From positions 25,338 through 89,337 of the forward strand of contig JAKLDJ010000007.1 in assembly GCA_022703585.1 (NCBI GenBank): a stretch of 64,000 nucleotides of DNA, read 5' to 3'. The notes beneath the pieces are model-generated. The model was not told the DNA's origin and searched no databases. It saw only the letters and a list, made by a program, of their open reading frames with translations. The stretch is from Candidatus Omnitrophota bacterium. GTDB lineage: Bacteria; Omnitrophota; Gorgyraeia; Zapsychrales; JAKLDJ01. Shown here one piece after another: positions 13,069 to 31,266 of this stretch. The first letter of the stretch is position 1. Every line of letters starts with the position of its first letter. A program made the translations under genes and the position numbers.

Positions 13069-13076
13069 TCATAATA

Positions 13077-13160
13077 AGGGACGCTCTTTCGGTTCAATGG
13101 AGGCCTGTCCCTTTTCTAGTAAAAAGGGACACACTTTTACAGCACGAAAAGAGCGTCCCT
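13077..13160 (+). other. Nested inverted-repeat stem-loops (GGGAC-containing REP-like element)
   Basis: agggacgctcttt (about 13077-13089) pairs perfectly with aaagagcgtccct (about 13148-13160), enclosing the hairpin gtccctttt/aaaagggac (about 13107-13130). The 10-mer agggacacac recurs at about 18739. Confidence 0.55.
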
Positions 13161-13212
13161 CAATAATAGGTTGACTAAAATAGGATTTGTGTTTAAATAA
13201 GAGAAATAAATA

Positions 13213-14374: not shown

Positions 14375-14818
14375 ATGAAGATAACTTTTAAAGGCGATTA
14401 TGCGTTAAAGGCGATTCTTGATTTAGCGCTTCATTACGATTCAGGCGAATTGGTAACAAGTTTTGATTTGTCTCAGCGCATCGACGCGCCGATAAAATTT
14501 TTAGAACAAGTGTTGCTGGAATTAAAGAAGGGCGGATTTATTGAAAGTCGCCGCGGAAATATCGGCGGTTATCGATTGGCGAGAGTTCCGGGGCAGATCA
14601 CGGTAGGCGATATCGTGCGGCTTGTGGATGGGCCCAGCGAACCGATTGCCTGTGTGAATAAGGATTATTCCAACTGCGCGGATATCAAGAAATGTATCTT
14701 TAAAGGAATTTGGCAAAAAGTGGACCAGGCGACATCGGGCATTATTGATCATATAACTTTTGAAGATTTGGCTTCGCAAATTAGCATAAACCAAAAAGTA
14801 TTATCCTATTCCATTTAA
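14375..14818 (+). CDS. Rrf2-family transcriptional regulator (IscR/NsrR-like, three-Cys Fe-S type)
   Basis: 147 aa with a winged HTH (SQRIDAPIKFLEQVLLELKKGGFIESRRG) and three cysteines (C-x7-C-x5-C in PIACVNKDYSNCADIKKC) resembling IscR cluster ligands. Confidence 0.85.
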   Translation: MKITFKGDYALKAILDLALHYDSGELVTSFDLSQRIDAPIKFLEQVLLELKKGGFIESRRGNIGGYRLARVPGQITVGDIVRLVDGPSEPIACVNKDYSNCADIKKCIFKGIWQKVDQATSGIIDHITFEDLASQISINQKVLSYSI

Positions 14819-18668: not shown

Positions 18669-18830
18669 GAGGGACAGACCCCGCCGTTACCCCGACCTGT
18701 CCCCTTCTCACGCTTGGGACAGTCCCAAGTGTGGCAGAGGGACACACCCAAGTTACGGCGGGGTCTGTCCCAGGTGTAATTTGGGGACTGTCCCAGAATT
18801 GCACCTGGAGCTGTCCCCGAAGTAAAAAGT
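18669..18830. repeat. Cluster of GGGACAG/CTGTCCC palindromic repeats (REP-like), about 160 nt
   Basis: At least seven copies of GGGAC(A/T)G or its complement, including the perfect palindromes gggacagtccc and gggactgtccc. The 17-bp inverted repeat gggacagaccccgccgt ... acggcggggtctgtccc lies here. Both strands give mirror-image ORFs (18554..18874 + and 18589..18879 -), which is symmetry rather than coding. Confidence 0.7.
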
Positions 18831-21985: not shown

Positions 21986-22621
21986 ATGCAAGGAATCGTC
22001 CTTTTCGGTGTTTTGGCGTGTACGTACTTGATGGTTATCGCCAAGCGAATGCCGGCTTTGATCCGCAACTTTCGCTATCAATCGTTCTTTTTGTTCTTGG
22101 CAACTTTTGTTACCGCGTTTCAGGAGCGGCAAATCGATTTGTACATCATCGCCGGATTATTGTTCGTGCTTAAGGTCATCGCGATTCCGTATGTTTTGTA
22201 CCGGGTCATCAAAAGGACGAAGGTTAACGAAGACTTAGGATTGTTTGTCAACGCCCAATTGTCGCTTCTCTCCGCCTTAGGGCTGACCTATCTATCCTGG
22301 ATTTTAGCCAGGCATTTGGTTGCCCCGGTTGACCGGGTTGAGGTTTCGACGTTTACGGTGGCTTTATTCATGGTGTCCACCGGGATATTTTTAATGATCC
22401 TGCGCATGACCGCGCTGGCGCAGATCATCGGCTTATTGGTTATGGAAAACGGGCTTTTTCTTTTGGCGTCGATGGTTTCGGGGGGCATGCCGTTTTTTGT
22501 CGAGATCGCCATATTCTTTGATGTCTTTGTGAGCGTTGTTATCATGGGATTTTTTCTTTACCGGATCAATAAACTTTTTACCCATATCGACGTTAATAAG
22601 CTTTCGCGTTTAAAGGGATAA
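21986..22621 (+). CDS. ehrC: Ehr module subunit C: HyfE-like small membrane subunit
   Basis: 211 aa, 6-7 TM, similar in size and hydropathy to hydrogenase-4 subunit HyfE. Confidence 0.6.
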   Translation: MQGIVLFGVLACTYLMVIAKRMPALIRNFRYQSFFLFLATFVTAFQERQIDLYIIAGLLFVLKVIAIPYVLYRVIKRTKVNEDLGLFVNAQLSLLSALGLTYLSWILARHLVAPVDRVEVSTFTVALFMVSTGIFLMILRMTALAQIIGLLVMENGLFLLASMVSGGMPFFVEIAIFFDVFVSVVIMGFFLYRINKLFTHIDVNKLSRLKG

Positions 22622-22625
22622 AGCA

Positions 22626-24083
22626 ATGCTGATATTTTTTATTTTGGGAATTCCGATTCTGCTGGCAGCTGGAGCCTTTTTCTCAAAAAGGCCCAGGGTA
22701 TTCGGAATTATTAATGTCTTTGGCTACTTAAGCATTTTATTGGCTTCAATCGTGCTTTTAAAAGATATTGCCTTTGCCGGCCACACACTTTTCTTCTTTA
22801 GTTTTCTTTATATCGATACTCTAAGCGCGTATTTTATTTTTGTTATCAGTGTGGTTAGCTTTGCCACAGCGCTTTATTCCGTCGGTTATATAGGAAAGGA
22901 TATGCAATCGGGGGCGATATCGGAAAATAAAGCAAAAATGTATTATTTGCTTTTTAATCTGTTTTGCTTTTCGATGTTTTTTGTCCCGGCGGTCAATAAT
23001 TTGGGCATGCTTTGGGTGGCTATTGAAATGACAACGCTGATCTCCGCGTTTTTGGTGGGATTTTATAACACCAAGCAATCGGTGGAAGCAGCCTGGAAAT
23101 ATATTATTATCTGCTCGGTGGGAATTATCTTCGCGCTTTTAGGCACAATCCTTTTTTCTTACGCGTTTTCGCTTGCCGGGGGCGCCAAAAGCCTTAATTG
23201 GACAGATATGGTGGCTGCGGCCGGGGGAATGGATAAAAATATCCTTAAAGTCGCCTTTATCTTTATTCTCGTCGGTTACGGGACCAAGGCGGGTTTGGCT
23301 CCCATGCACACCTGGCTGCCGGACGCGCACAGCCAGGCGGTTACCCCCATTAGCGCGCTTCTTTCCGGGGTTTTATTAAAGACCGCGATTTACGCTATTC
23401 TTAGATTCGGCATCATTGTGATTGAGGGGGTGGGATTTGGGTATTTCAGCCACCTGATGATTTTGCTGGGGTTGATCTCGCTAGGCGTATCCTGCAGCTT
23501 TATTCTGGTTCAAAAAGATTTAAAACGGCTTTTGGCCTACAGCAGCATTGAACATGTCGGAATAATTGCTATCGGCTTAGGGTTAGGCACGCCGCTCGCT
23601 TGGGGTGGCGCTTTATTGCATGTTTTTAATCATGCCGTGACTAAGTCGCTCATGTTTTTTGGCGCCGGGGATATTGTCAGCGCCTACAAAAGGCACAACA
23701 TGAAGATGATTCGCGGGGTTATAAGGGTTTTGCCCTTTGCCGGAGTAATGACGCTGGCAGGCATGTTTGCCTTAACCGGTTTTCCGCCGTTTTCCATTTT
23801 TGTCAGCGAACTCATAATCATTATCGCCGCGTTTACCAAGGGGTCTTACGTCGTGGCTGTCCTGTTTTTGCTATTTATCGCGATTATCTTCGGCGCCTTC
23901 GCCTATCAATTCGGTAAAATGCTTTTTGGCAATCTTCCCAAAGGAATGGCGAAGGCGCCGGAACCTTTAAGCGGAAAGCTGGCGTTCTTATTTTTGTTCG
24001 TTCAAATGCTGGCGGTGGGCGGTGTGGTTCTATTCATGAAGAAGGACTTATTATGGATTGTGCAGGGATTATTAACGAGATAA
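22626..24083 (+). CDS. ehrD: Ehr module subunit D: NuoM/N/HyfF-like antiporter-type membrane subunit
   Basis: 485 aa, NADH dehydrogenase M/N family (…GLAPMHTWLPDAH… motif). Confidence 0.8.
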   Translation: MLIFFILGIPILLAAGAFFSKRPRVFGIINVFGYLSILLASIVLLKDIAFAGHTLFFFSFLYIDTLSAYFIFVISVVSFATALYSVGYIGKDMQSGAISENKAKMYYLLFNLFCFSMFFVPAVNNLGMLWVAIEMTTLISAFLVGFYNTKQSVEAAWKYIIICSVGIIFALLGTILFSYAFSLAGGAKSLNWTDMVAAAGGMDKNILKVAFIFILVGYGTKAGLAPMHTWLPDAHSQAVTPISALLSGVLLKTAIYAILRFGIIVIEGVGFGYFSHLMILLGLISLGVSCSFILVQKDLKRLLAYSSIEHVGIIAIGLGLGTPLAWGGALLHVFNHAVTKSLMFFGAGDIVSAYKRHNMKMIRGVIRVLPFAGVMTLAGMFALTGFPPFSIFVSELIIIIAAFTKGSYVVAVLFLLFIAIIFGAFAYQFGKMLFGNLPKGMAKAPEPLSGKLAFLFLFVQMLAVGGVVLFMKKDLLWIVQGLLTR

Positions 24084-25642: not shown

Positions 25643-25666
25643 ATAATTAATTATGCTGGTATTTAA

Positions 25667-25747
25667 CACAGATTCTCACAGATCAAACACAGATGGCCAC
25701 AGATAAAACTATCTGTGAATATCTGTTTAGATCTGTGTCTATCTGTG
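25667..25747. repeat. Dyad-symmetric heptamer array: four CACAGAT followed by four ATCTGTG
   Basis: Reads cacagattctcacagatcaaacacagatggccacagataaaactatctgtgaatatctgtttagatctgtgtctatctgtg. It sits in a 157-nt gap between ehrL and ehrS. Confidence 0.8.
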
Positions 25748-25799
25748 CTCAATAAGAGCAAAAGTAAATCGACATTATAAACTTATAGGATTTTTTGCC

Positions 25800-26315: not shown

Positions 26316-26319
26316 CAAG

Positions 26320-26620
26320 CTCCAATAACCAAGATACAAATCCCAAACAATATTCAATAAGTAAATTCCAATGACCAAACACGGTTTGGTTATTGGGGAT
26401 TGGGTATTGAAATTTGTTTGTATCTTGTTTCTTGGAATTTGTATCTTAACAAACCTAGGGCATAGGTTACGGTTAGGGTTAGGATGCCCGTATCGGTTAC
26501 GTTTAGCGGTTAGGTCAAAACTTTAGGCCGAATGCCGTTACCGAAAGACGATACGGGCTTCGTAACCGTTACCTTTACCGAGTAACGATACGGGCTTCGT
26601 TACCGTAACCGAAAGACTTT
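26320..26620. repeat. Repeat-dense non-coding block: imperfect palindromes, telomere-like GGTTAG hexamers, two ~25-nt direct repeats
   Basis: ccaataacc/ggttattgg; caagatacaaat with two copies of its reverse complement atttgtatctt; ggttacggttagggttagg; gcccgtatcg inverted relative to two copies of cgatacgggcttcgt(a/t)accgt(t/a)acc, flanked by ccgaaagac. No ORF support. Confidence 0.7.
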
Positions 26621-26787
26621 ATTTGACAAAATTCTCCCAGAGGCGTAGCCTATGAATTAAGTATTGTGTCCCCGGAATTCAGATTCCCGTTTACGGAATT
26701 CCGAATAAATTAGACCGTTTCTCAATAAACATTTGCAGGATATAGGGTTTTGGCAAAAATATCCCCGGAAATCTTGGGATCTTAAAT

Positions 26788-27639
26788 ATGTCAAAATTAG
26801 AATTTATTTCAAGCGCATCGGATTTCAACCTTACCGATGCTTTCTATTTGTCCAAAATTTCGGAATTAGTCTATGAAGATTTGGACAAGATTGAGGATGT
26901 TCTTAAGGAAGAGTATGGTTTATCAAAATACAAACCATTCGAGGTGAAAGAAACAGATACGCAAGCTTTTCTAGCATCTAATGAGGATATTTTAGTGCTG
27001 GCCTTTAGAGGAACTACTTCATGGGCTGACTGGATGACTAATTTCAAAATAGTAATGGTTTCGTCTAGCGTAGGGAAAGTTCATTCTGGCTTTGCTCGGT
27101 CTTTAAATTCGATTTGGGATGATGTAAACGATTCTATTCTTTCTGGGAAGGATAGAAATCAAACTCTTTGGGTTGCTGGTCATAGTTTAGGTGGGGCGTT
27201 GGCTACGTTGGCTGTCGATAGATTAACTGAAGAAAATTCAGAAATAGTTGATGGTTTGTATACATTTGGACAACCTAGAGTGGGGGATAAACAGTTCGCC
27301 GATAACTTTGACAGGAAGATGAAGCGGCATGCTTTTCGTTTAGTTGATGATGAAGACATTGTAACGAAGATACCCATACCTCCGGGCTATCGTCACATAG
27401 GAACGGAGTACTTTATTAACAATAAAGGTCTGCTGTCTAAGAATAATAATTTCTGGGAGTGGTTTAGGAGTTGCTCGGAATCGGTAGCAATACGTTCAAG
27501 CGACGATGCAAACAAATATCGGGCACAAAACCCAGGGGGGATAAGAGATCACGGTGCTAGTTATTATTCTAAATACTTGTATCAAAATTTACAAAAGAAG
27601 AGAAAGAGTCCTTTTTTAAGCTACATCAATGGGGCGTAG
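26788..27639 (+). CDS. Lipase class 3 (alpha/beta-hydrolase) family protein, no signal peptide
   Basis: Nucleophile elbow LWVAGHSLGGALATLAV and the Lipase_3 core (YTFGQPRVGD). The gene is markedly AT-rich compared with its neighbours. Confidence 0.8.
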   Translation: MSKLEFISSASDFNLTDAFYLSKISELVYEDLDKIEDVLKEEYGLSKYKPFEVKETDTQAFLASNEDILVLAFRGTTSWADWMTNFKIVMVSSSVGKVHSGFARSLNSIWDDVNDSILSGKDRNQTLWVAGHSLGGALATLAVDRLTEENSEIVDGLYTFGQPRVGDKQFADNFDRKMKRHAFRLVDDEDIVTKIPIPPGYRHIGTEYFINNKGLLSKNNNFWEWFRSCSESVAIRSSDDANKYRAQNPGGIRDHGASYYSKYLYQNLQKKRKSPFLSYINGA

Positions 27640-27741
27640 CATGAAATGTTCCGGGGGCACACCTTAACCCTTCGACAAACTCAGGGTAAATGTTTCACGT
27701 TAAGAAGTGTTCGCTAACGCTCGCTGTAATACTTAATTAAA

Positions 27742-28206
27742 ATGAAAAATAATCTCGTATCTATTTATGTTGCACATGACATTCTCGAACTGAATGGGGT
27801 AAAAGACGTTTTAGAGAAGAACGGCATTGCTGTCGTGATTCGTGCCTATGAGGACAGCGCATTTAAAGAGATTTTTAAACCGCAGTACGGCGCGGGGGAA
27901 TTGCTGGTCGCTAGCGACAGAGAGACGGAAGCAAAGAAAATCATAAACGACTATCTCCAAGCAGAAAAACAATTGATGCTTCCGGAAGACGAAAAGCCTA
28001 AGAATTGTTTCGATGATATAAAGAAAAAAGGCAGGCAATCTGCAGTTATTGTTCCAGTAGTGGTTTCTATTATTTTTATGGCATTGGGGATTTTGTTTGT
28101 AGTATACGGAAATATGGCCGGAAGAGTTTGCGGCGGGATATGCCTGTCTTTTTCGTTGGCAGCTATTTGGATTTCCCATCTGAATGCTATGGACAATCGA
28201 AATTAG
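27742..28206 (+). CDS. DUF2007-like (putative signal-transducing) domain protein with a C-terminal TM anchor
   Basis: N-terminal domain MKNNLVSIYVAHDILELNGVKDVLEKNGIAVVIRAYED with a C-terminal hydrophobic helix (AVIVPVVVSIIFMALGILFVVYG). AT-rich. Confidence 0.55.
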   Translation: MKNNLVSIYVAHDILELNGVKDVLEKNGIAVVIRAYEDSAFKEIFKPQYGAGELLVASDRETEAKKIINDYLQAEKQLMLPEDEKPKNCFDDIKKKGRQSAVIVPVVVSIIFMALGILFVVYGNMAGRVCGGICLSFSLAAIWISHLNAMDNRN

Positions 28207-28311
28207 ATGGAATCCCGGTGACACCGGAATTTGAGGGAGTTAAAAAAACGTGCCGGGTACAAATTAGGGGCAGGGTGATTCCCGGGAATCATAGAGGTAA
28301 TTCTACGAAAA

Positions 28312-28683
28312 ATGAAAATACTTAATCTTGCTCTCAATGATGTAGAAAACGGCAGCATCTACAAGTATATTGCAGAAGATTCAGATGATATCGAAATCGC
28401 TCTTATTCATACCGATAATATTGAAGAAAGTTCTGGTTCCTATTTGATTACTGGTGAGGTTACCTTAGCCGATGGGAGTAGGTATCCTGCTATTTTCGGA
28501 ATAAATTCCGATGATGGCGGTGAAATGTCTGAGTTTTATTTTCTAGTCGATTCTGATGGATGGGTCTCAAGCAGTGATAACCTTGAAGAATTATTAAGAA
28601 AGAAGAAGGAAGAAGTTTTTCCTTTCAGATATCATTTAAATATTAAAGTTGAAGGTGACTTGCATACTGAAAATCAATATTAG
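28312..28683 (+). CDS. Hypothetical acidic protein (123 aa)
   Basis: The ORF has a start and is very acidic (many D/E). No recognisable domain. AT-rich. Confidence 0.45.
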   Translation: MKILNLALNDVENGSIYKYIAEDSDDIEIALIHTDNIEESSGSYLITGEVTLADGSRYPAIFGINSDDGGEMSEFYFLVDSDGWVSSSDNLEELLRKKKEEVFPFRYHLNIKVEGDLHTENQY

Positions 28684-28703: not shown

Positions 28704-28790
28704 TAGCGAATAGTGAATAGTCAATGGTGAATGGTTAATGGTGAATGGTGAATAGTTAATAGTGAATAGCGGATAGCGGATAGTAAAGCG
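28704..28790. repeat. Tandem heptanucleotide repeat (consensus TGAATRG, about 12 units)
   Basis: Reads gcgaatag tgaatag tcaatgg tgaatgg ttaatgg tgaatgg tgaatag ttaatag tgaatag cggatag cggatag. Confidence 0.8.
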
Positions 28791-28811: not shown

Positions 28812-28840
28812 TTGAGTTTCTTAAAAAATTGAAGTATAAT
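28812..28840 (+). promoter_or_regulatory. Candidate sigma70 promoter for the ORF6N gene (TTGAGT, 17-nt spacer, TATAAT)
   Basis: Reads cTTGAGTttcttaaaaaattgaagTATAAT, followed by a CCAAC-rich leader. Confidence 0.4.
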
Positions 28841-28946: not shown

Positions 28947-29471
28947 ATGAAAAAAAGCACCGCTTTGGAAGTTGTCGAGCAAAAGATTTTCTTGATCCGG
29001 GGTCAGAAAGTCATGATCGACCTACATTTGGCCGAGCTTTACGATGTTCGGACAAAAGTCCTTGTCCAAGCCGTCAAGCGAAACAAAAGAAGGTTTCCTA
29101 AGGATTTTATGTTTCAACTGACCGATCAAGAATTTGAGAGTTTGAGGTCACAATTTGTGACCTCAAACCGCGGTGGAAGACGGTACCGGCCGTATGCCTT
29201 TACGGAACAGGGTGTCGCGATGCTTTCAAGCGTTCTCAACGGCGAGAGGGCTGTTCAAGTCAATATTGTCATTATGAGGGTTTTTGTCAAATTGAGAGGA
29301 ATTTTATTTGCTCATAAAGAACTTGAGCAAAAACTGAACGCGCTTGAGCAAAAAGTCGAAAGTCACGACGCCCATATCCAGGGGATCTTTGATGTTATCC
29401 GTAAATTGATGGCAGCACCTGTTGAGAAACCAAAACAGAGAATCGGGTTTCATCCGTCCCCTTCCGGCTAA
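28947..29471 (+). CDS. ORF6N-domain protein (KilA-N-like, phage antirepressor-associated DNA-binding domain)
   Basis: IRGQKVMIDLHLAELYDVRTKVLVQAVKRNKRRFPKDFMFQLT...SQFVTSNRGGRRYRPYAFTEQGVAMLSSVL matches the ORF6N domain consensus. Confidence 0.8.
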   Translation: MKKSTALEVVEQKIFLIRGQKVMIDLHLAELYDVRTKVLVQAVKRNKRRFPKDFMFQLTDQEFESLRSQFVTSNRGGRRYRPYAFTEQGVAMLSSVLNGERAVQVNIVIMRVFVKLRGILFAHKELEQKLNALEQKVESHDAHIQGIFDVIRKLMAAPVEKPKQRIGFHPSPSG

Positions 29472-29472
29472 T

Positions 29473-29515
29473 CGGGAATTTGAGAATTTGAGGTGACAAT
29501 TTGACACCTCAAAAA
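29473..29515. repeat. Downstream duplicate of an internal ~40-nt segment of the ORF6N gene
   Basis: gaatttgagaatttgaggtgacaatttgacacctcaaa (after the stop) versus gaatttgagagtttgaggtcacaatttgtgacctcaaacc inside the CDS (about 29127-29168). The internal copy contains the perfect palindrome tttgaggtcacaa t ttgtgacctcaaa. Confidence 0.7.
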
Positions 29516-29523
29516 AGGAGTAG

Positions 29524-29567
29524 GAGGGGCGCAAGCCCCGCTTTTTCAGGCGGGGCTTGCGCCCCTC
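29524..29567 (+). terminator. Strong hairpin after the ORF6N gene (terminator-like)
   Basis: gaggggcgcaagccccgc tttttcag gcggggcttgcgcccctc: 18-bp perfect stem followed by a T-rich stretch. Confidence 0.6.
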
Positions 29568-29678: not shown

Positions 29679-29711
29679 CTCATCGAAGTTGCGGCCTCGT
29701 TTAATTTTAAT

Positions 29712-29739
29712 TTGACAAAATAAAAAATAACGCTACAAT
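29712..29739 (+). promoter_or_regulatory. Candidate sigma70 promoter for the mbh/mrp operon (TTGACA, 16-nt spacer, TACAAT)
   Basis: Reads tTTGACAaaataaaaaataacgcTACAATaag. Confidence 0.45.
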
Positions 29740-29820: not shown

Positions 29821-31266
29821 GTGTCCAACCAACAAATCCTGCTTTCGGTTATCTTCGTTCCAACCTTGGGCGCTTTCCTTTTACCTATCCTGGAGCGGGT
29901 GTCAGCCGGGTTACGCAACTGGTCGGCGCTTGTTTTTGTCCTGGTTTCGGTTGCCGGCTCTTCTTTGCTCGCACCTTTAGCCCTGAAGGGACAAGCTGTA
30001 AGTGTAAGCCACGCATTGCCTTTGGGATTTAACTTCGTCTTTACCGCGGACGGCCTGGCGGTATTTATGGCGCTGGTGTCATCATTCATCAGCGCGGTTA
30101 TCGTCCTTTATTCCTTCGGTTATATAAGCCACTATGAGAATCAAAACGAGTATTATCTCATGGTGGTTTTGTTTTTAGGCTCCATGATGGGGCTGGTTTT
30201 TTCGGGAAATCTCATCTTCCTTTATCTGTTTTGGGAAATCACGGCCATCACCAGCTGGCGGTTGATCGGATTCTTTAGAGAGAAAAATGACGTCTTTCGA
30301 GCCGACAAATCGTTTTTGGTCACGGCCTTCGGTGCTTTGTCCATGCTTTTGGGCTTTTTAATGATCTACCAGCAGTCCGGCTCATTTGACCTGTCGGTTA
30401 TTAAGGAAACGTTTAGGTTTAATCCGCTATCCAATACCGCGATATTTTTAATCCTTATCGGAATATTCTCTAAATCAGCCACCTTGCCGTTCCATACCTG
30501 GCTTCCGGATGCAGGGGTAGCTCCGTCGCCGGTAACCGCGCTACTGCACGCGGCGGTTCTGGTAAAGATTGGCGTCTATGTCTTTGCCCGGCTTTTTGTG
30601 GTCAATCTTTCGCTGGGCGAATTCTGGCATGTAGCGGTACCGGTTATTGCGGGCGCCAGCGCGCTTGTTTCAGCCGGGGCAGCACTTATTGACACCAATT
30701 TAAAAAGAATTATTGCCTATTCGACCATCAGTCAAATAGGTTTTATTTTTCTTGGCCTCGCCATCGGAAACGAAATGGCGGTTGCCGGCGGGCTTTTGTA
30801 TATCTTGATGCACGGCCTGGCCAAGGGCGGGTTGTTCTTGTGCGCCGGTATCATTGAGCAGAACACCAAGACAAAAGACATTACTAAAATGGGCGGCCTG
30901 ATCGCGACCATGCCGGTCACGGCGATCGCATTTTTATTCTGCGCGTTTTCGGTCATGGGCATACCGCCGTTTGGCGGATTCTTTAGCAAATTTATGGTTA
31001 TTGTGGGAACGTTACAGGCCGGTCATGTATGGATCGCGCTTATTTTTATTCTGGGCGCTTTTTTGACTATCCTTTATCTTTTTAGAGCCTTTAACATGAT
31101 CTTCTTAGGCGAACTTAAAACTCCGGGCGTAAGGGAAGGCTCAGCCGTTATGGTTTTTAGCGTGGCGCTGTTGGCATTTCTTTCGCTGGCAGGCGGCATT
31201 TTTATCCGGTATCCGAATGAATTCGTAGGGCTGGTTTTGCAGCCCATATTTGGGATGGTGCGGTAA
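29821..31266 (+). CDS. MrpD/NuoN-like antiporter-type membrane subunit (MbhH-like), GTG start
   Basis: 481 aa, NADH dehydrogenase L/M/N family (…LPFHTWLPDA…). Confidence 0.8.
   Translation: MSNQQILLSVIFVPTLGAFLLPILERVSAGLRNWSALVFVLVSVAGSSLLAPLALKGQAVSVSHALPLGFNFVFTADGLAVFMALVSSFISAVIVLYSFGYISHYENQNEYYLMVVLFLGSMMGLVFSGNLIFLYLFWEITAITSWRLIGFFREKNDVFRADKSFLVTAFGALSMLLGFLMIYQQSGSFDLSVIKETFRFNPLSNTAIFLILIGIFSKSATLPFHTWLPDAGVAPSPVTALLHAAVLVKIGVYVFARLFVVNLSLGEFWHVAVPVIAGASALVSAGAALIDTNLKRIIAYSTISQIGFIFLGLAIGNEMAVAGGLLYILMHGLAKGGLFLCAGIIEQNTKTKDITKMGGLIATMPVTAIAFLFCAFSVMGIPPFGGFFSKFMVIVGTLQAGHVWIALIFILGAFLTILYLFRAFNMIFLGELKTPGVREGSAVMVFSVALLAFLSLAGGIFIRYPNEFVGLVLQPIFGMVR

Follow-up and report, generated by a model that had tools for sequence, protein, structure and literature searches.

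What are three AT-rich genes, a lipase among them, doing between two operons for hydrogenase-like complexes? The question is raised by a stretch of 64,000 nucleotides (nt), hereafter the window, from an uncultured Candidatus Omnitrophota bacterium (GCA_022703585.1, contig JAKLDJ010000007.1, positions 25,338–89,337 of the forward strand). The original prediction had described an islet of three open reading frames (ORFs) at this place, and all three were recovered with exactly its boundaries. The reading favoured here, to which we give a probability of about 55%, is that they form a mosaic, acquired islet whose accessory genes function independently of one another and whose core is an intact, intracellular lipase. 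The islet comprises the following genes:

26788–27639, forward strand: class-3 lipase (alpha/beta hydrolase) of 283 amino acids (aa), identified by Pfam Lipase_3, PHROG and the alignment of the catalytic triad.
27742–28206, forward strand: membrane protein of 154 aa with a DUF2007-like domain and two predicted transmembrane helices (DUF2007+2TM protein), identified by a sub-threshold Pfam match, an AlphaFold2 model and a family search.
28312–28683, forward strand: acidic orphan protein of 123 aa, isoelectric point (pI) 4.2, predicted to be mostly beta, with one homologue.

Spacers of 102 and 105 nt lie between the genes, which are thus not translationally coupled. In the databases, their products are named "lipase family protein" or "hypothetical protein [Candidatus Omnitrophota bacterium]". 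According to Pfam architecture, the 5′ flank is a six-gene Ehr-like operon encoding two antiporter-like proteins, a NuoH-like protein, a 211-aa protein, a fused NuoC/D-like protein and a NuoB-like protein, the last of which (171 aa) is the product of ehrS. On the 3′ side, beyond an ORF6N gene, lies an Mrp/Mbh-like operon that, by the same criterion, opens with three antiporter-like genes and also includes NuoJ-, NuoK-, NuoB- and NuoC-like genes and a NiFe large-subunit-like gene. The two flanks agree with the hydrogenase-like operons first proposed, between which the islet is putatively inserted.

The composition of the islet sets it apart from its surroundings, as had been claimed. Its GC content is 39.2% against 47.2% for the window, the lowest value among all 1.9-kb segments scanned (mean 47.1%, standard deviation (SD) 2.4%). 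The GC contents at third codon positions (GC3) of the lipase, DUF2007+2TM and acidic genes (0.363, 0.432 and 0.282, respectively) are the three lowest of the 58 genes in the window; with the 54 other genes at 0.553 ± 0.040 as the reference, which is that of the 64-kb window rather than of the whole genome, they correspond to z-scores of −4.7, −3.0 and −6.7. The overall GC content is 0.390 for the lipase gene and 0.347 for the acidic gene, whose GC3 is the lowest in the window. The AT anomaly is real and strong, and it is confined to the three genes and their spacers.

Homologues of the islet genes elsewhere point to an origin outside this genome. In six other Omnitrophota loci (L005, L009, L116, L117, L118 and L119), the GC3 of the lipase homologue tracks that of its host over a range of 0.27–0.58, and the gene therefore has no intrinsic AT bias. 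The homologue with which the window lipase groups, P0003, lies in a locus of 38% GC (L116) and matches it almost exactly in GC and GC3 (0.390/0.366 vs. 0.390/0.363). The nearest homologue, P0002 (64% identity; GC3 0.395), belongs to a second AT-rich three-gene islet (L007, 1541–4023) that lies between panB (GC3 0.67) and hisS (0.77). Its partners there, a DUF6804 membrane protein and a 215-aa coiled-coil-like protein (GC3 0.384 and 0.394), are unrelated to those in the window, and the flanking panB, hisS, PPDK and sigma factor genes have GC3 values of 0.67–0.77. Among the other loci compared, L007 is the only one with an AT-rich lipase gene in surroundings of richer GC. Homologues of the two small proteins also reside in AT-rich DNA: the single homologue of the acidic protein, P0122, in DNA of 32.7% GC, and the DUF2007+2TM homologue P0124, whose gene is very AT-rich (25% GC, GC3 0.175), in DNA of 32% GC. 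The horizontal acquisition of the three genes that the original prediction had suggested is thus well supported by the GC3 outliers, the host-tracking GC3 of the lipase homologues, the L007 islet and the occurrence of the small-protein homologues in DNA of 32–33% GC. The match with P0003 and the composition around the small-protein homologues suggest that the donors had low GC and were most likely other Omnitrophota. The three genes may have arrived in one event or in several; their GC3 values differ by up to 0.15, estimated at about 2.5 times the sampling error.

The position of the islet is consistent with such an arrival. When EhrS, the lipase and ORF6N were looked up as exact proteins, the same arrangement with identical proteins emerged in about 17–20 conspecific contigs, which stem from several independent samples; the arrangement is thus fixed in the species. 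An EhrL scan of one genome per species yielded 14 Omnitrophota loci for comparison (EhrL 56–70% identical). The six Ehr-like genes are kept in all 14, while the genes downstream of them differ from one relative to another; the boundary after ehrS is therefore a general synteny breakpoint in the phylum. Within up to 10 kb downstream, where the contig permitted, none of the 14 relatives carries an Mbh-like operon, the lipase, the DUF2007+2TM protein, the acidic protein or ORF6N, and conservation of the trio at this place in the clade is therefore not seen. Neither this result nor the composition contradicts the original prediction. With a length of about 2.5 kb (approximately 26.4–28.9 kb), the islet may accordingly be pictured as a horizontally acquired segment that lodged at this operon boundary and has since become fixed in the species.

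The first islet gene encodes a complete enzyme. The lipase matches Pfam Lipase_3 (PF01764) over profile positions 1–137 of 140 (E = 1.2e-31; 110 bits, cutoff 22) and the PHROG esterase/lipase family (E = 7.8e-21). The GHSLGG motif that had been singled out as the nucleophile elbow is found at residues 131–136 (elbow G131-H132-S133-L134-G135), and the catalytic Ser-Asp-His triad is complete: S133, D190 and H255 are invariant across 38 homologues with 37–64% identity to the window lipase. R74-G75 and H99-G101-F102 are likewise invariant in this alignment, as are the FRGT and GHSLG motifs. Among solved structures, the fungal lipases 3ngm and 5ap9 are the best matches (E about 6e-16, residues 56–216), with the Ser and Asp regions of the window lipase aligned to their counterparts. 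The alpha/beta-hydrolase core, the GHSLG elbow and the Ser-Asp-His triad are features that the protein has in common with other class-3 lipases, such as the triacylglycerol lipases of Rhizomucor miehei and Thermomyces lanuginosus and plant phospholipase A1. In contrast to the fungal enzymes, the window lipase is bacterial and apparently free of a signal peptide, and it shares about 30% identity with them over the core.

No 19-residue segment of the lipase exceeds a Kyte-Doolittle hydropathy of 1.04, no transmembrane segment is present, and the N-terminus is polar and acidic. Judged from this hydropathy profile, with no dedicated predictor such as SignalP used, the lipase is predicted to lack a classical signal peptide, which makes the cytoplasmic location originally proposed reasonable. 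Given the intact triad and the lack of an export signal, we infer that the enzyme would act in the cell interior or on the cytoplasmic side of the membrane, where it is proposed to hydrolyse acyl esters, possibly of the acylglycerol or phospholipid sn-1 type. The top homologues are all stand-alone proteins of 270–290 aa, and the closest relatives are chromosomal Omnitrophota genes (50–64% identity). By sequence, the lipase is a member of an apparently uncharacterised clade that is mostly from Omnitrophota and common in the phylum. A literature search found nothing published on lipases of Omnitrophota or on what DUF2007 does.

The second protein scores 21.0 bits against Pfam DUF2007 (PF09413), under the gathering score of 25.7, and 16.8 against NCBIfam DUF2007_rel, for which the threshold is 55. 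Three full-length relatives, P0124 (35.7), P0125 (26.8) and P0127 (29.9), exceed the DUF2007 threshold, so the window protein is assigned to the family by transitivity only. An exhaustive HMMER search of 1.84 billion proteins yielded 31 representatives of the DUF2007+2TM family at E ≤ 1e-3, the best of which share 37%, 32% and 28% identity with the window protein and have equal length and architecture. In the AlphaFold2 model (predicted local distance difference test (pLDDT) score 78), a beta-alpha-beta...beta-alpha domain is followed by two long C-terminal helices. The DUF2007-like domain (residues 5–77) is modelled at a pLDDT of about 80–94 except for one loop, and the two helices coincide with hydrophobic segments at about residues 97–147. 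The protein is thus predicted to combine an N-terminal DUF2007-like (PII/ferredoxin-like) domain with a C-terminal two-helix transmembrane hairpin. A Foldseek search of the PDB with the model returned nothing below an E-value of 0.04; the weak matches consisted of the DUF2007 founder 2hfv, ranked ninth (E = 0.12; TM-score 0.50, normalised to the target), along with PII-like proteins and ring-building motifs of type III secretion.

One member of this family provides a first functional lead, its role having hitherto not been known. P0124 shares the architecture of the window protein at 37% identity, and its gene begins 10 nt downstream of one whose product terminates with the Rhs core motif YFYRARYYDPTIGRFLSEDP ... 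LYTYGINNSINFTDPNGE and a brief hydrophobic tail. The position directly 3′ of an Rhs C-terminal toxin is the canonical place of an immunity gene in polymorphic toxin systems. This is a single context seen in two samples (L122, 2–1079, and L121). In these two samples, about 95 aa are inserted into the Rhs C-terminus between the motifs GRFLSEDP and LYxYxxNNxxxxxDPxG. P0124 has no match in plasmid records.

The third protein contains 26 aspartate and glutamate residues against nine lysine and arginine residues, and has no match in Pfam, NCBIfam, PADLOC or PHROG. Its only homologue among 5.8 billion clusters, P0122 (49% identity), lies among small unrelated ORFs and not beside a lipase or a DUF2007 protein. 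The AlphaFold2 model built from this two-sequence alignment was unusable (pLDDT 43.6).

The three genes show no conserved linkage. Profiles of the DUF2007+2TM and acidic proteins gave no match in 168 lipase loci, comprising eight close, 80 metagenomic and 80 viral-contig loci. In the clustering of neighbouring genes, no family recurs in more than six of 83 lipase loci, and the neighbours of the eight close lipase homologues (50–64% identity) are mutually unrelated at E ≤ 0.01. The lipase clade in Omnitrophota may therefore be viewed as a lone gene whose neighbours change each time it shifts between variable regions. The DUF2007+2TM and acidic genes would then be lineage-restricted passengers, picked up with the lipase or separately, rather than its obligate partners, and the three genes probably function independently of one another.

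A phage-associated ORF6N gene was expected after the islet and is indeed present, together with a partial copy of itself:

28947–29471, forward strand: ORF6N/KilA-N-type protein of 174 aa, pI 10.2, identified by Pfam ORF6N, PADLOC and PHROG.
29471–29513, forward strand: 43-nt copy (86% identical) of the ORF6N segment 29125–29167 that abuts the ORF6N stop codon; each of the two is palindromic.

The ORF6N protein matches Pfam ORF6N (E = 3.2e-35) and, weakly, Rha, as well as the PHROG anti-repressor family (E = 3e-25) and three PADLOC models of PDC-S05, a single-gene defence candidate of the ORF6N/RhuM type (best PDLC04856, E = 7.3e-57, profile positions 8–175 of 177). One PDC-S05 representative, which carried a Virulence_RhuM domain, is reported to have protected E. 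coli against T7, T5 and T4 (preprint, bioRxiv 10.1101/2024.09.26.614923). This likeness belongs to the ORF6N neighbour and not to the three islet genes, and, unlike the representative tested, the window ORF6N protein shows no RhuM domain in a Pfam scan. The composition of the gene is near-native (GC3 0.486, z = −1.7). The 43-nt pattern occurs twice, against 0.00 occurrences expected. Within the gene, the segment encodes ..EFESLRSQFVTS.. and includes, at 29140–29168, a perfect 14+14-nt palindrome, and the copy after the stop codon reads EFENLR*QFDTS in one frame. It resembles the scar of a second ORF6N copy or a candidate binding or recombination site.

Several observations weigh against an acquired islet of independent genes. 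No empty site was found, all conspecifics carrying the islet and the relatives lacking the adjacency of Ehr- and Mbh-like operons; no integrase or transposase is present among the window proteins checked; and there is no tRNA gene anywhere in the window. The sole candidate for a flanking direct repeat, 26618–26632 vs. 29707–29721 (the latter being the −35 region of the promoter predicted upstream of the first Mbh/Mrp-like gene), agrees in 14 of 15 nt, a match no better than chance. These two copies were considered as attachment (att) sites, but the case is unproven; both contain a TTGACA hexamer resembling a −35 element. The nearest lipase homologue is merely 64% identical and the donor is not among the genomes sampled, so that it is composition that speaks for a recent acquisition. 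The functional independence of the genes is argued from their absence of co-occurrence, an argument of little power for small proteins that are near-orphans. The Rhs-adjacent position of P0124, the AbiE, SoFic and Nhi-like neighbours of lipase homologues described below and the PDC-S05 likeness of the ORF6N neighbour all hint at a role in conflict. In comparison with small genomic islands, the islet has compositional contrast, an inter-operon synteny breakpoint, orphan cargo and edge repeats in common, but is only about 2.5 kb long and lacks an integrase, a tRNA target, clear att repeats and a demonstrated presence/absence polymorphism.

Those hints bear on the effector-immunity or abortive-infection module that the original prediction had seen in the order of the three genes. 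In such a module, the lipase would be a membrane-attacking effector, the DUF2007+2TM protein its immunity protein or anchor and the acidic protein perhaps an inhibitor, the whole forming a mini defence island with the ORF6N gene; the lipase would degrade membrane lipid when a phage infects the cell or when the enzyme has been delivered into a host or a competitor. We regard this explanation as possible, yet doubtful. It draws on the immunity-gene position of P0124, which is a single observation at 37% identity, and on the reported protection of E. coli by a PDC-S05 representative, whose RhuM domain the window ORF6N does not show. Many antitoxins and immunity proteins are small and acidic, as is the third islet protein, and the L007 islet also joins a lipase with a small multi-transmembrane protein, but a membrane-protein neighbour in five of the eight close contexts is about what chance would give. 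Close lipase homologues do adjoin defence genes. Homologues at 57–58% identity stand in the order SoFic-lipase-AbiEi-AbiEii in L119 and L120 and AbiEi-AbiEii-Metallophos-193aa-lipase in L118, and one at 51% identity (L009) has DpnI, toxin-antitoxin pairs and an Nhi/AbiO-like helicase in its region; however, L118 and L119/L120 share the ancestry of their context. Across the 113 immediate neighbours of the broader lipase family, defence models are not enriched (no matched control). PADLOC-DB v2 yielded no match at E ≤ 0.1 for the lipase or the acidic protein, and for the membrane protein only a generic 2TM effector model at chance level (E = 0.03). The lipase has no trafficking domain or signal peptide and its top homologues stand alone, P0122 is adjacent to neither a lipase nor a DUF2007 protein, and no relative of either small protein appears in the 168 lipase loci; with neither a conserved pairing nor a defence-model match beyond chance, the module originally proposed found no support in these searches. 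Compared with the Tle-Tli pairs of the type VI secretion system and with Rhs immunity cassettes, the islet is similar in being AT-rich and in its order of hydrolase, small membrane protein and small acidic protein, and a homologue of its membrane protein occupies the Rhs immunity position. It differs in that the pairing is not conserved, that the lipase lacks a delivery domain and that no secretion or Rhs genes occur among the window genes examined. Tli immunity proteins are periplasmic, whereas the islet membrane protein is predicted to be a two-helix transmembrane hairpin with a soluble DUF2007 domain. A bolder form of the idea, which we hold to be improbable, is a hitherto undescribed lipase-based conflict module of Omnitrophota, in which a membrane-destroying cytoplasmic lipase would be restrained by the DUF2007+2TM protein, from a family that would also serve in Rhs immunity, and by an acidic inhibitor. 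Its partners would be exchangeable (DUF6804 and coiled-coil proteins in L007, DUF2007+2TM and acidic proteins in the window), and it would act in abortive infection or in attack on host or prey cells. The defence and Rhs leads are suggestive but thin.

Two further explanations dispense with an accessory islet of this kind. The genes could be the remnant of a phage or mobile element, or moron cargo, with ORF6N as the last recognisable phage gene and the rest deleted. This explanation gains from the anti-repressor and weak Rha matches of ORF6N, from the 43-nt fragment after its stop codon, which suggests past recombination, and from the abundance of class-3 lipases in viral DNA: at least 547 confirmed relatives, near full length and at 30–42% identity, are on IMG/VR viral contigs, and cyanophage genomes too encode lipases of this type, for which there is a PHROG family. 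It appears unlikely, since the window lipase is closer to chromosomal Omnitrophota genes (50–64%) than to the viral relatives listed (35–42%), since neither small protein has a match in 50,697 phage records and the acidic protein has none in IMG/VR, and since the near-native composition of ORF6N differs from that of the trio. Moreover, the proteins sampled from the 64-kb window are ordinary chromosomal ones, with no integrase, structural, replication or lysis gene among them, and a tRNA gene is absent there as well. Alternatively, the three genes could be native and owe their atypical composition to low expression, relaxed selection or amino-acid content. The identical arrangement in all conspecific contigs and a lipase family typical of the phylum would fit this idea, as would the unremarkable synonymous-codon log-likelihood of the DUF2007+2TM gene (z = −1.3) and the existence, at a scale of 400 nt, of a few other spots that are equally AT-rich (e.g., 22600–22999 at 0.375). 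Nevertheless, we consider a native origin highly improbable: GC3, which is largely free of amino-acid constraint, deviates by 3 to 6.7 SD and is the lowest of the 58 genes in all three; the lipase GC3 tracks the host elsewhere; a parallel AT-rich lipase islet stands between housekeeping genes in L007; and the trio is absent nearby in the 14 relatives with the Ehr-like operon.

Two side observations concern the surroundings of lipase homologues. In L119 (1131–5015) and L118 (536–4548), the lipase is embedded among SoFic and AbiEi/AbiEii genes in a variable spot, which in L118 and L120 lies upstream of a MoxR-DUF58-transglutaminase operon; L120 shares its context with L119. Models of DrmC (phospholipase-D-type) match four of the 113 immediate neighbours of distant lipase homologues (L036–L115), the remaining matches being scattered singletons, and these four neighbours may reflect a pairing in lipid metabolism rather than in defence.

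Repeat blocks had been claimed on both sides of the islet, and they are present as hairpins on the left (26316–26614) and a heptamer array on the right (28704–28784). The repeats and predicted signals of the region are as follows:

25643–25799, forward strand: spacer hairpin of 157 nt within the Ehr-like operon, between ehrL and ehrS, with CACAGAT-type repeats and inverted copies.
26316–26441, forward strand: left hairpin 1, an imperfect palindrome of 126 nt that begins immediately behind the stop codon of ehrS, with inverted repeats and near end-to-end pairing in the minimum free energy (MFE) fold.
26465–26614, forward strand: left hairpin 2, formed by pairing of GGTTAGG/GGTTACG heptamer-like units with two tandem units of 37 nt, CCGTTACCGAAAGACGATACGGGCTTCGTAACCGTTA.
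28704–28784, forward strand: right boundary heptamer array, a tandem repeat of 11.6 copies with the consensus TAGTGAA, unstructured (fold z-score +1.0).
28812–28840, forward strand: predicted promoter-like site of ORF6N, TTGAGT-17-TATAAT.
29524–29567, forward strand: intrinsic-terminator-like hairpin of 20 pairs (15 G-C) with a T-rich tail, closing the block from the lipase to ORF6N.
29712–29739, forward strand: best sigma-70-like promoter of the region, TTGACA-16-TACAAT (11/12), upstream of the first Mbh/Mrp-like gene at 29821.

The left spacer (26316–26787) contains both long hairpins, and the MFE fold of 26316–26625 has a z-score of −8.47; Tandem Repeats Finder reported tandem rows within this spacer at 26535–26617. 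The right array ends 28 nt upstream of the predicted −35 element of ORF6N. Three loci (L001, L034 and L035) span it with lengths that agree with the window and thus show no evident change in copy number, the array itself not having been directly compared. The ehrL-ehrS spacer contains tandem repeats at 25665–25747 and has a fold z-score of −7.25, while the same gap in the 14 Omnitrophota relatives is about 3–7 nt or an overlap; it looks like a lineage-specific palindromic element inserted into the operon. Repeats are concentrated in this region, which holds three of the window's five tandem arrays (within 25.6–28.8 kb) and six of the 11 long local inverted repeats (within 25.6–29.6 kb). Five long spacer hairpins (13072–13165, 18671–18788, 25647–25767, 26316–26441 and 26465–26614) have arms of 24–50 nt that are 71–84% complementary. 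The first two follow other operons. The five differ in sequence and thus do not form a single repeat family in the window, and several consist of short tandem units with inverted copies; they could be terminators, repetitive extragenic palindromic (REP)-like or miniature inverted-repeat transposable element (MITE)-like elements, or something else. As similar hairpins occur after other operons and inside the Ehr-like operon, they are a feature of the spacers of this genome and not proof of island borders. An Rfam search of the spacers gave only sub-threshold chance matches, on the terminator hairpin.

Short-read contigs break near some of these elements: L032 and L004 at 26406–26435, and three contigs from different samples exactly at 29166. 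A strain polymorphism was considered as their cause, but the breaks coincide with long palindromes and are more simply explained as breaks in the assembly graph. Elsewhere in the window, an Rrf2-family regulator gene (14375–14818) has the fourth-lowest GC3 (0.446, z = −2.6) and may be an older acquisition or simple scatter.

Most likely an ordinary set of acquired accessory genes, the islet neatly illustrates how genes pass between Omnitrophota, here presumably from low-GC donors to a genome with a GC content of about 47%, and it marks a synteny break between two respiratory-complex operons. To our knowledge, neither an effector that attacks lipids nor a defence based on a lipase has been described from Omnitrophota. 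Members of the phylum are regarded as nanobacteria that depend on a host or are predatory (PMC10066038). If the lipase clade did turn out to be a conflict effector, the finding would matter more for the biology of Omnitrophota.

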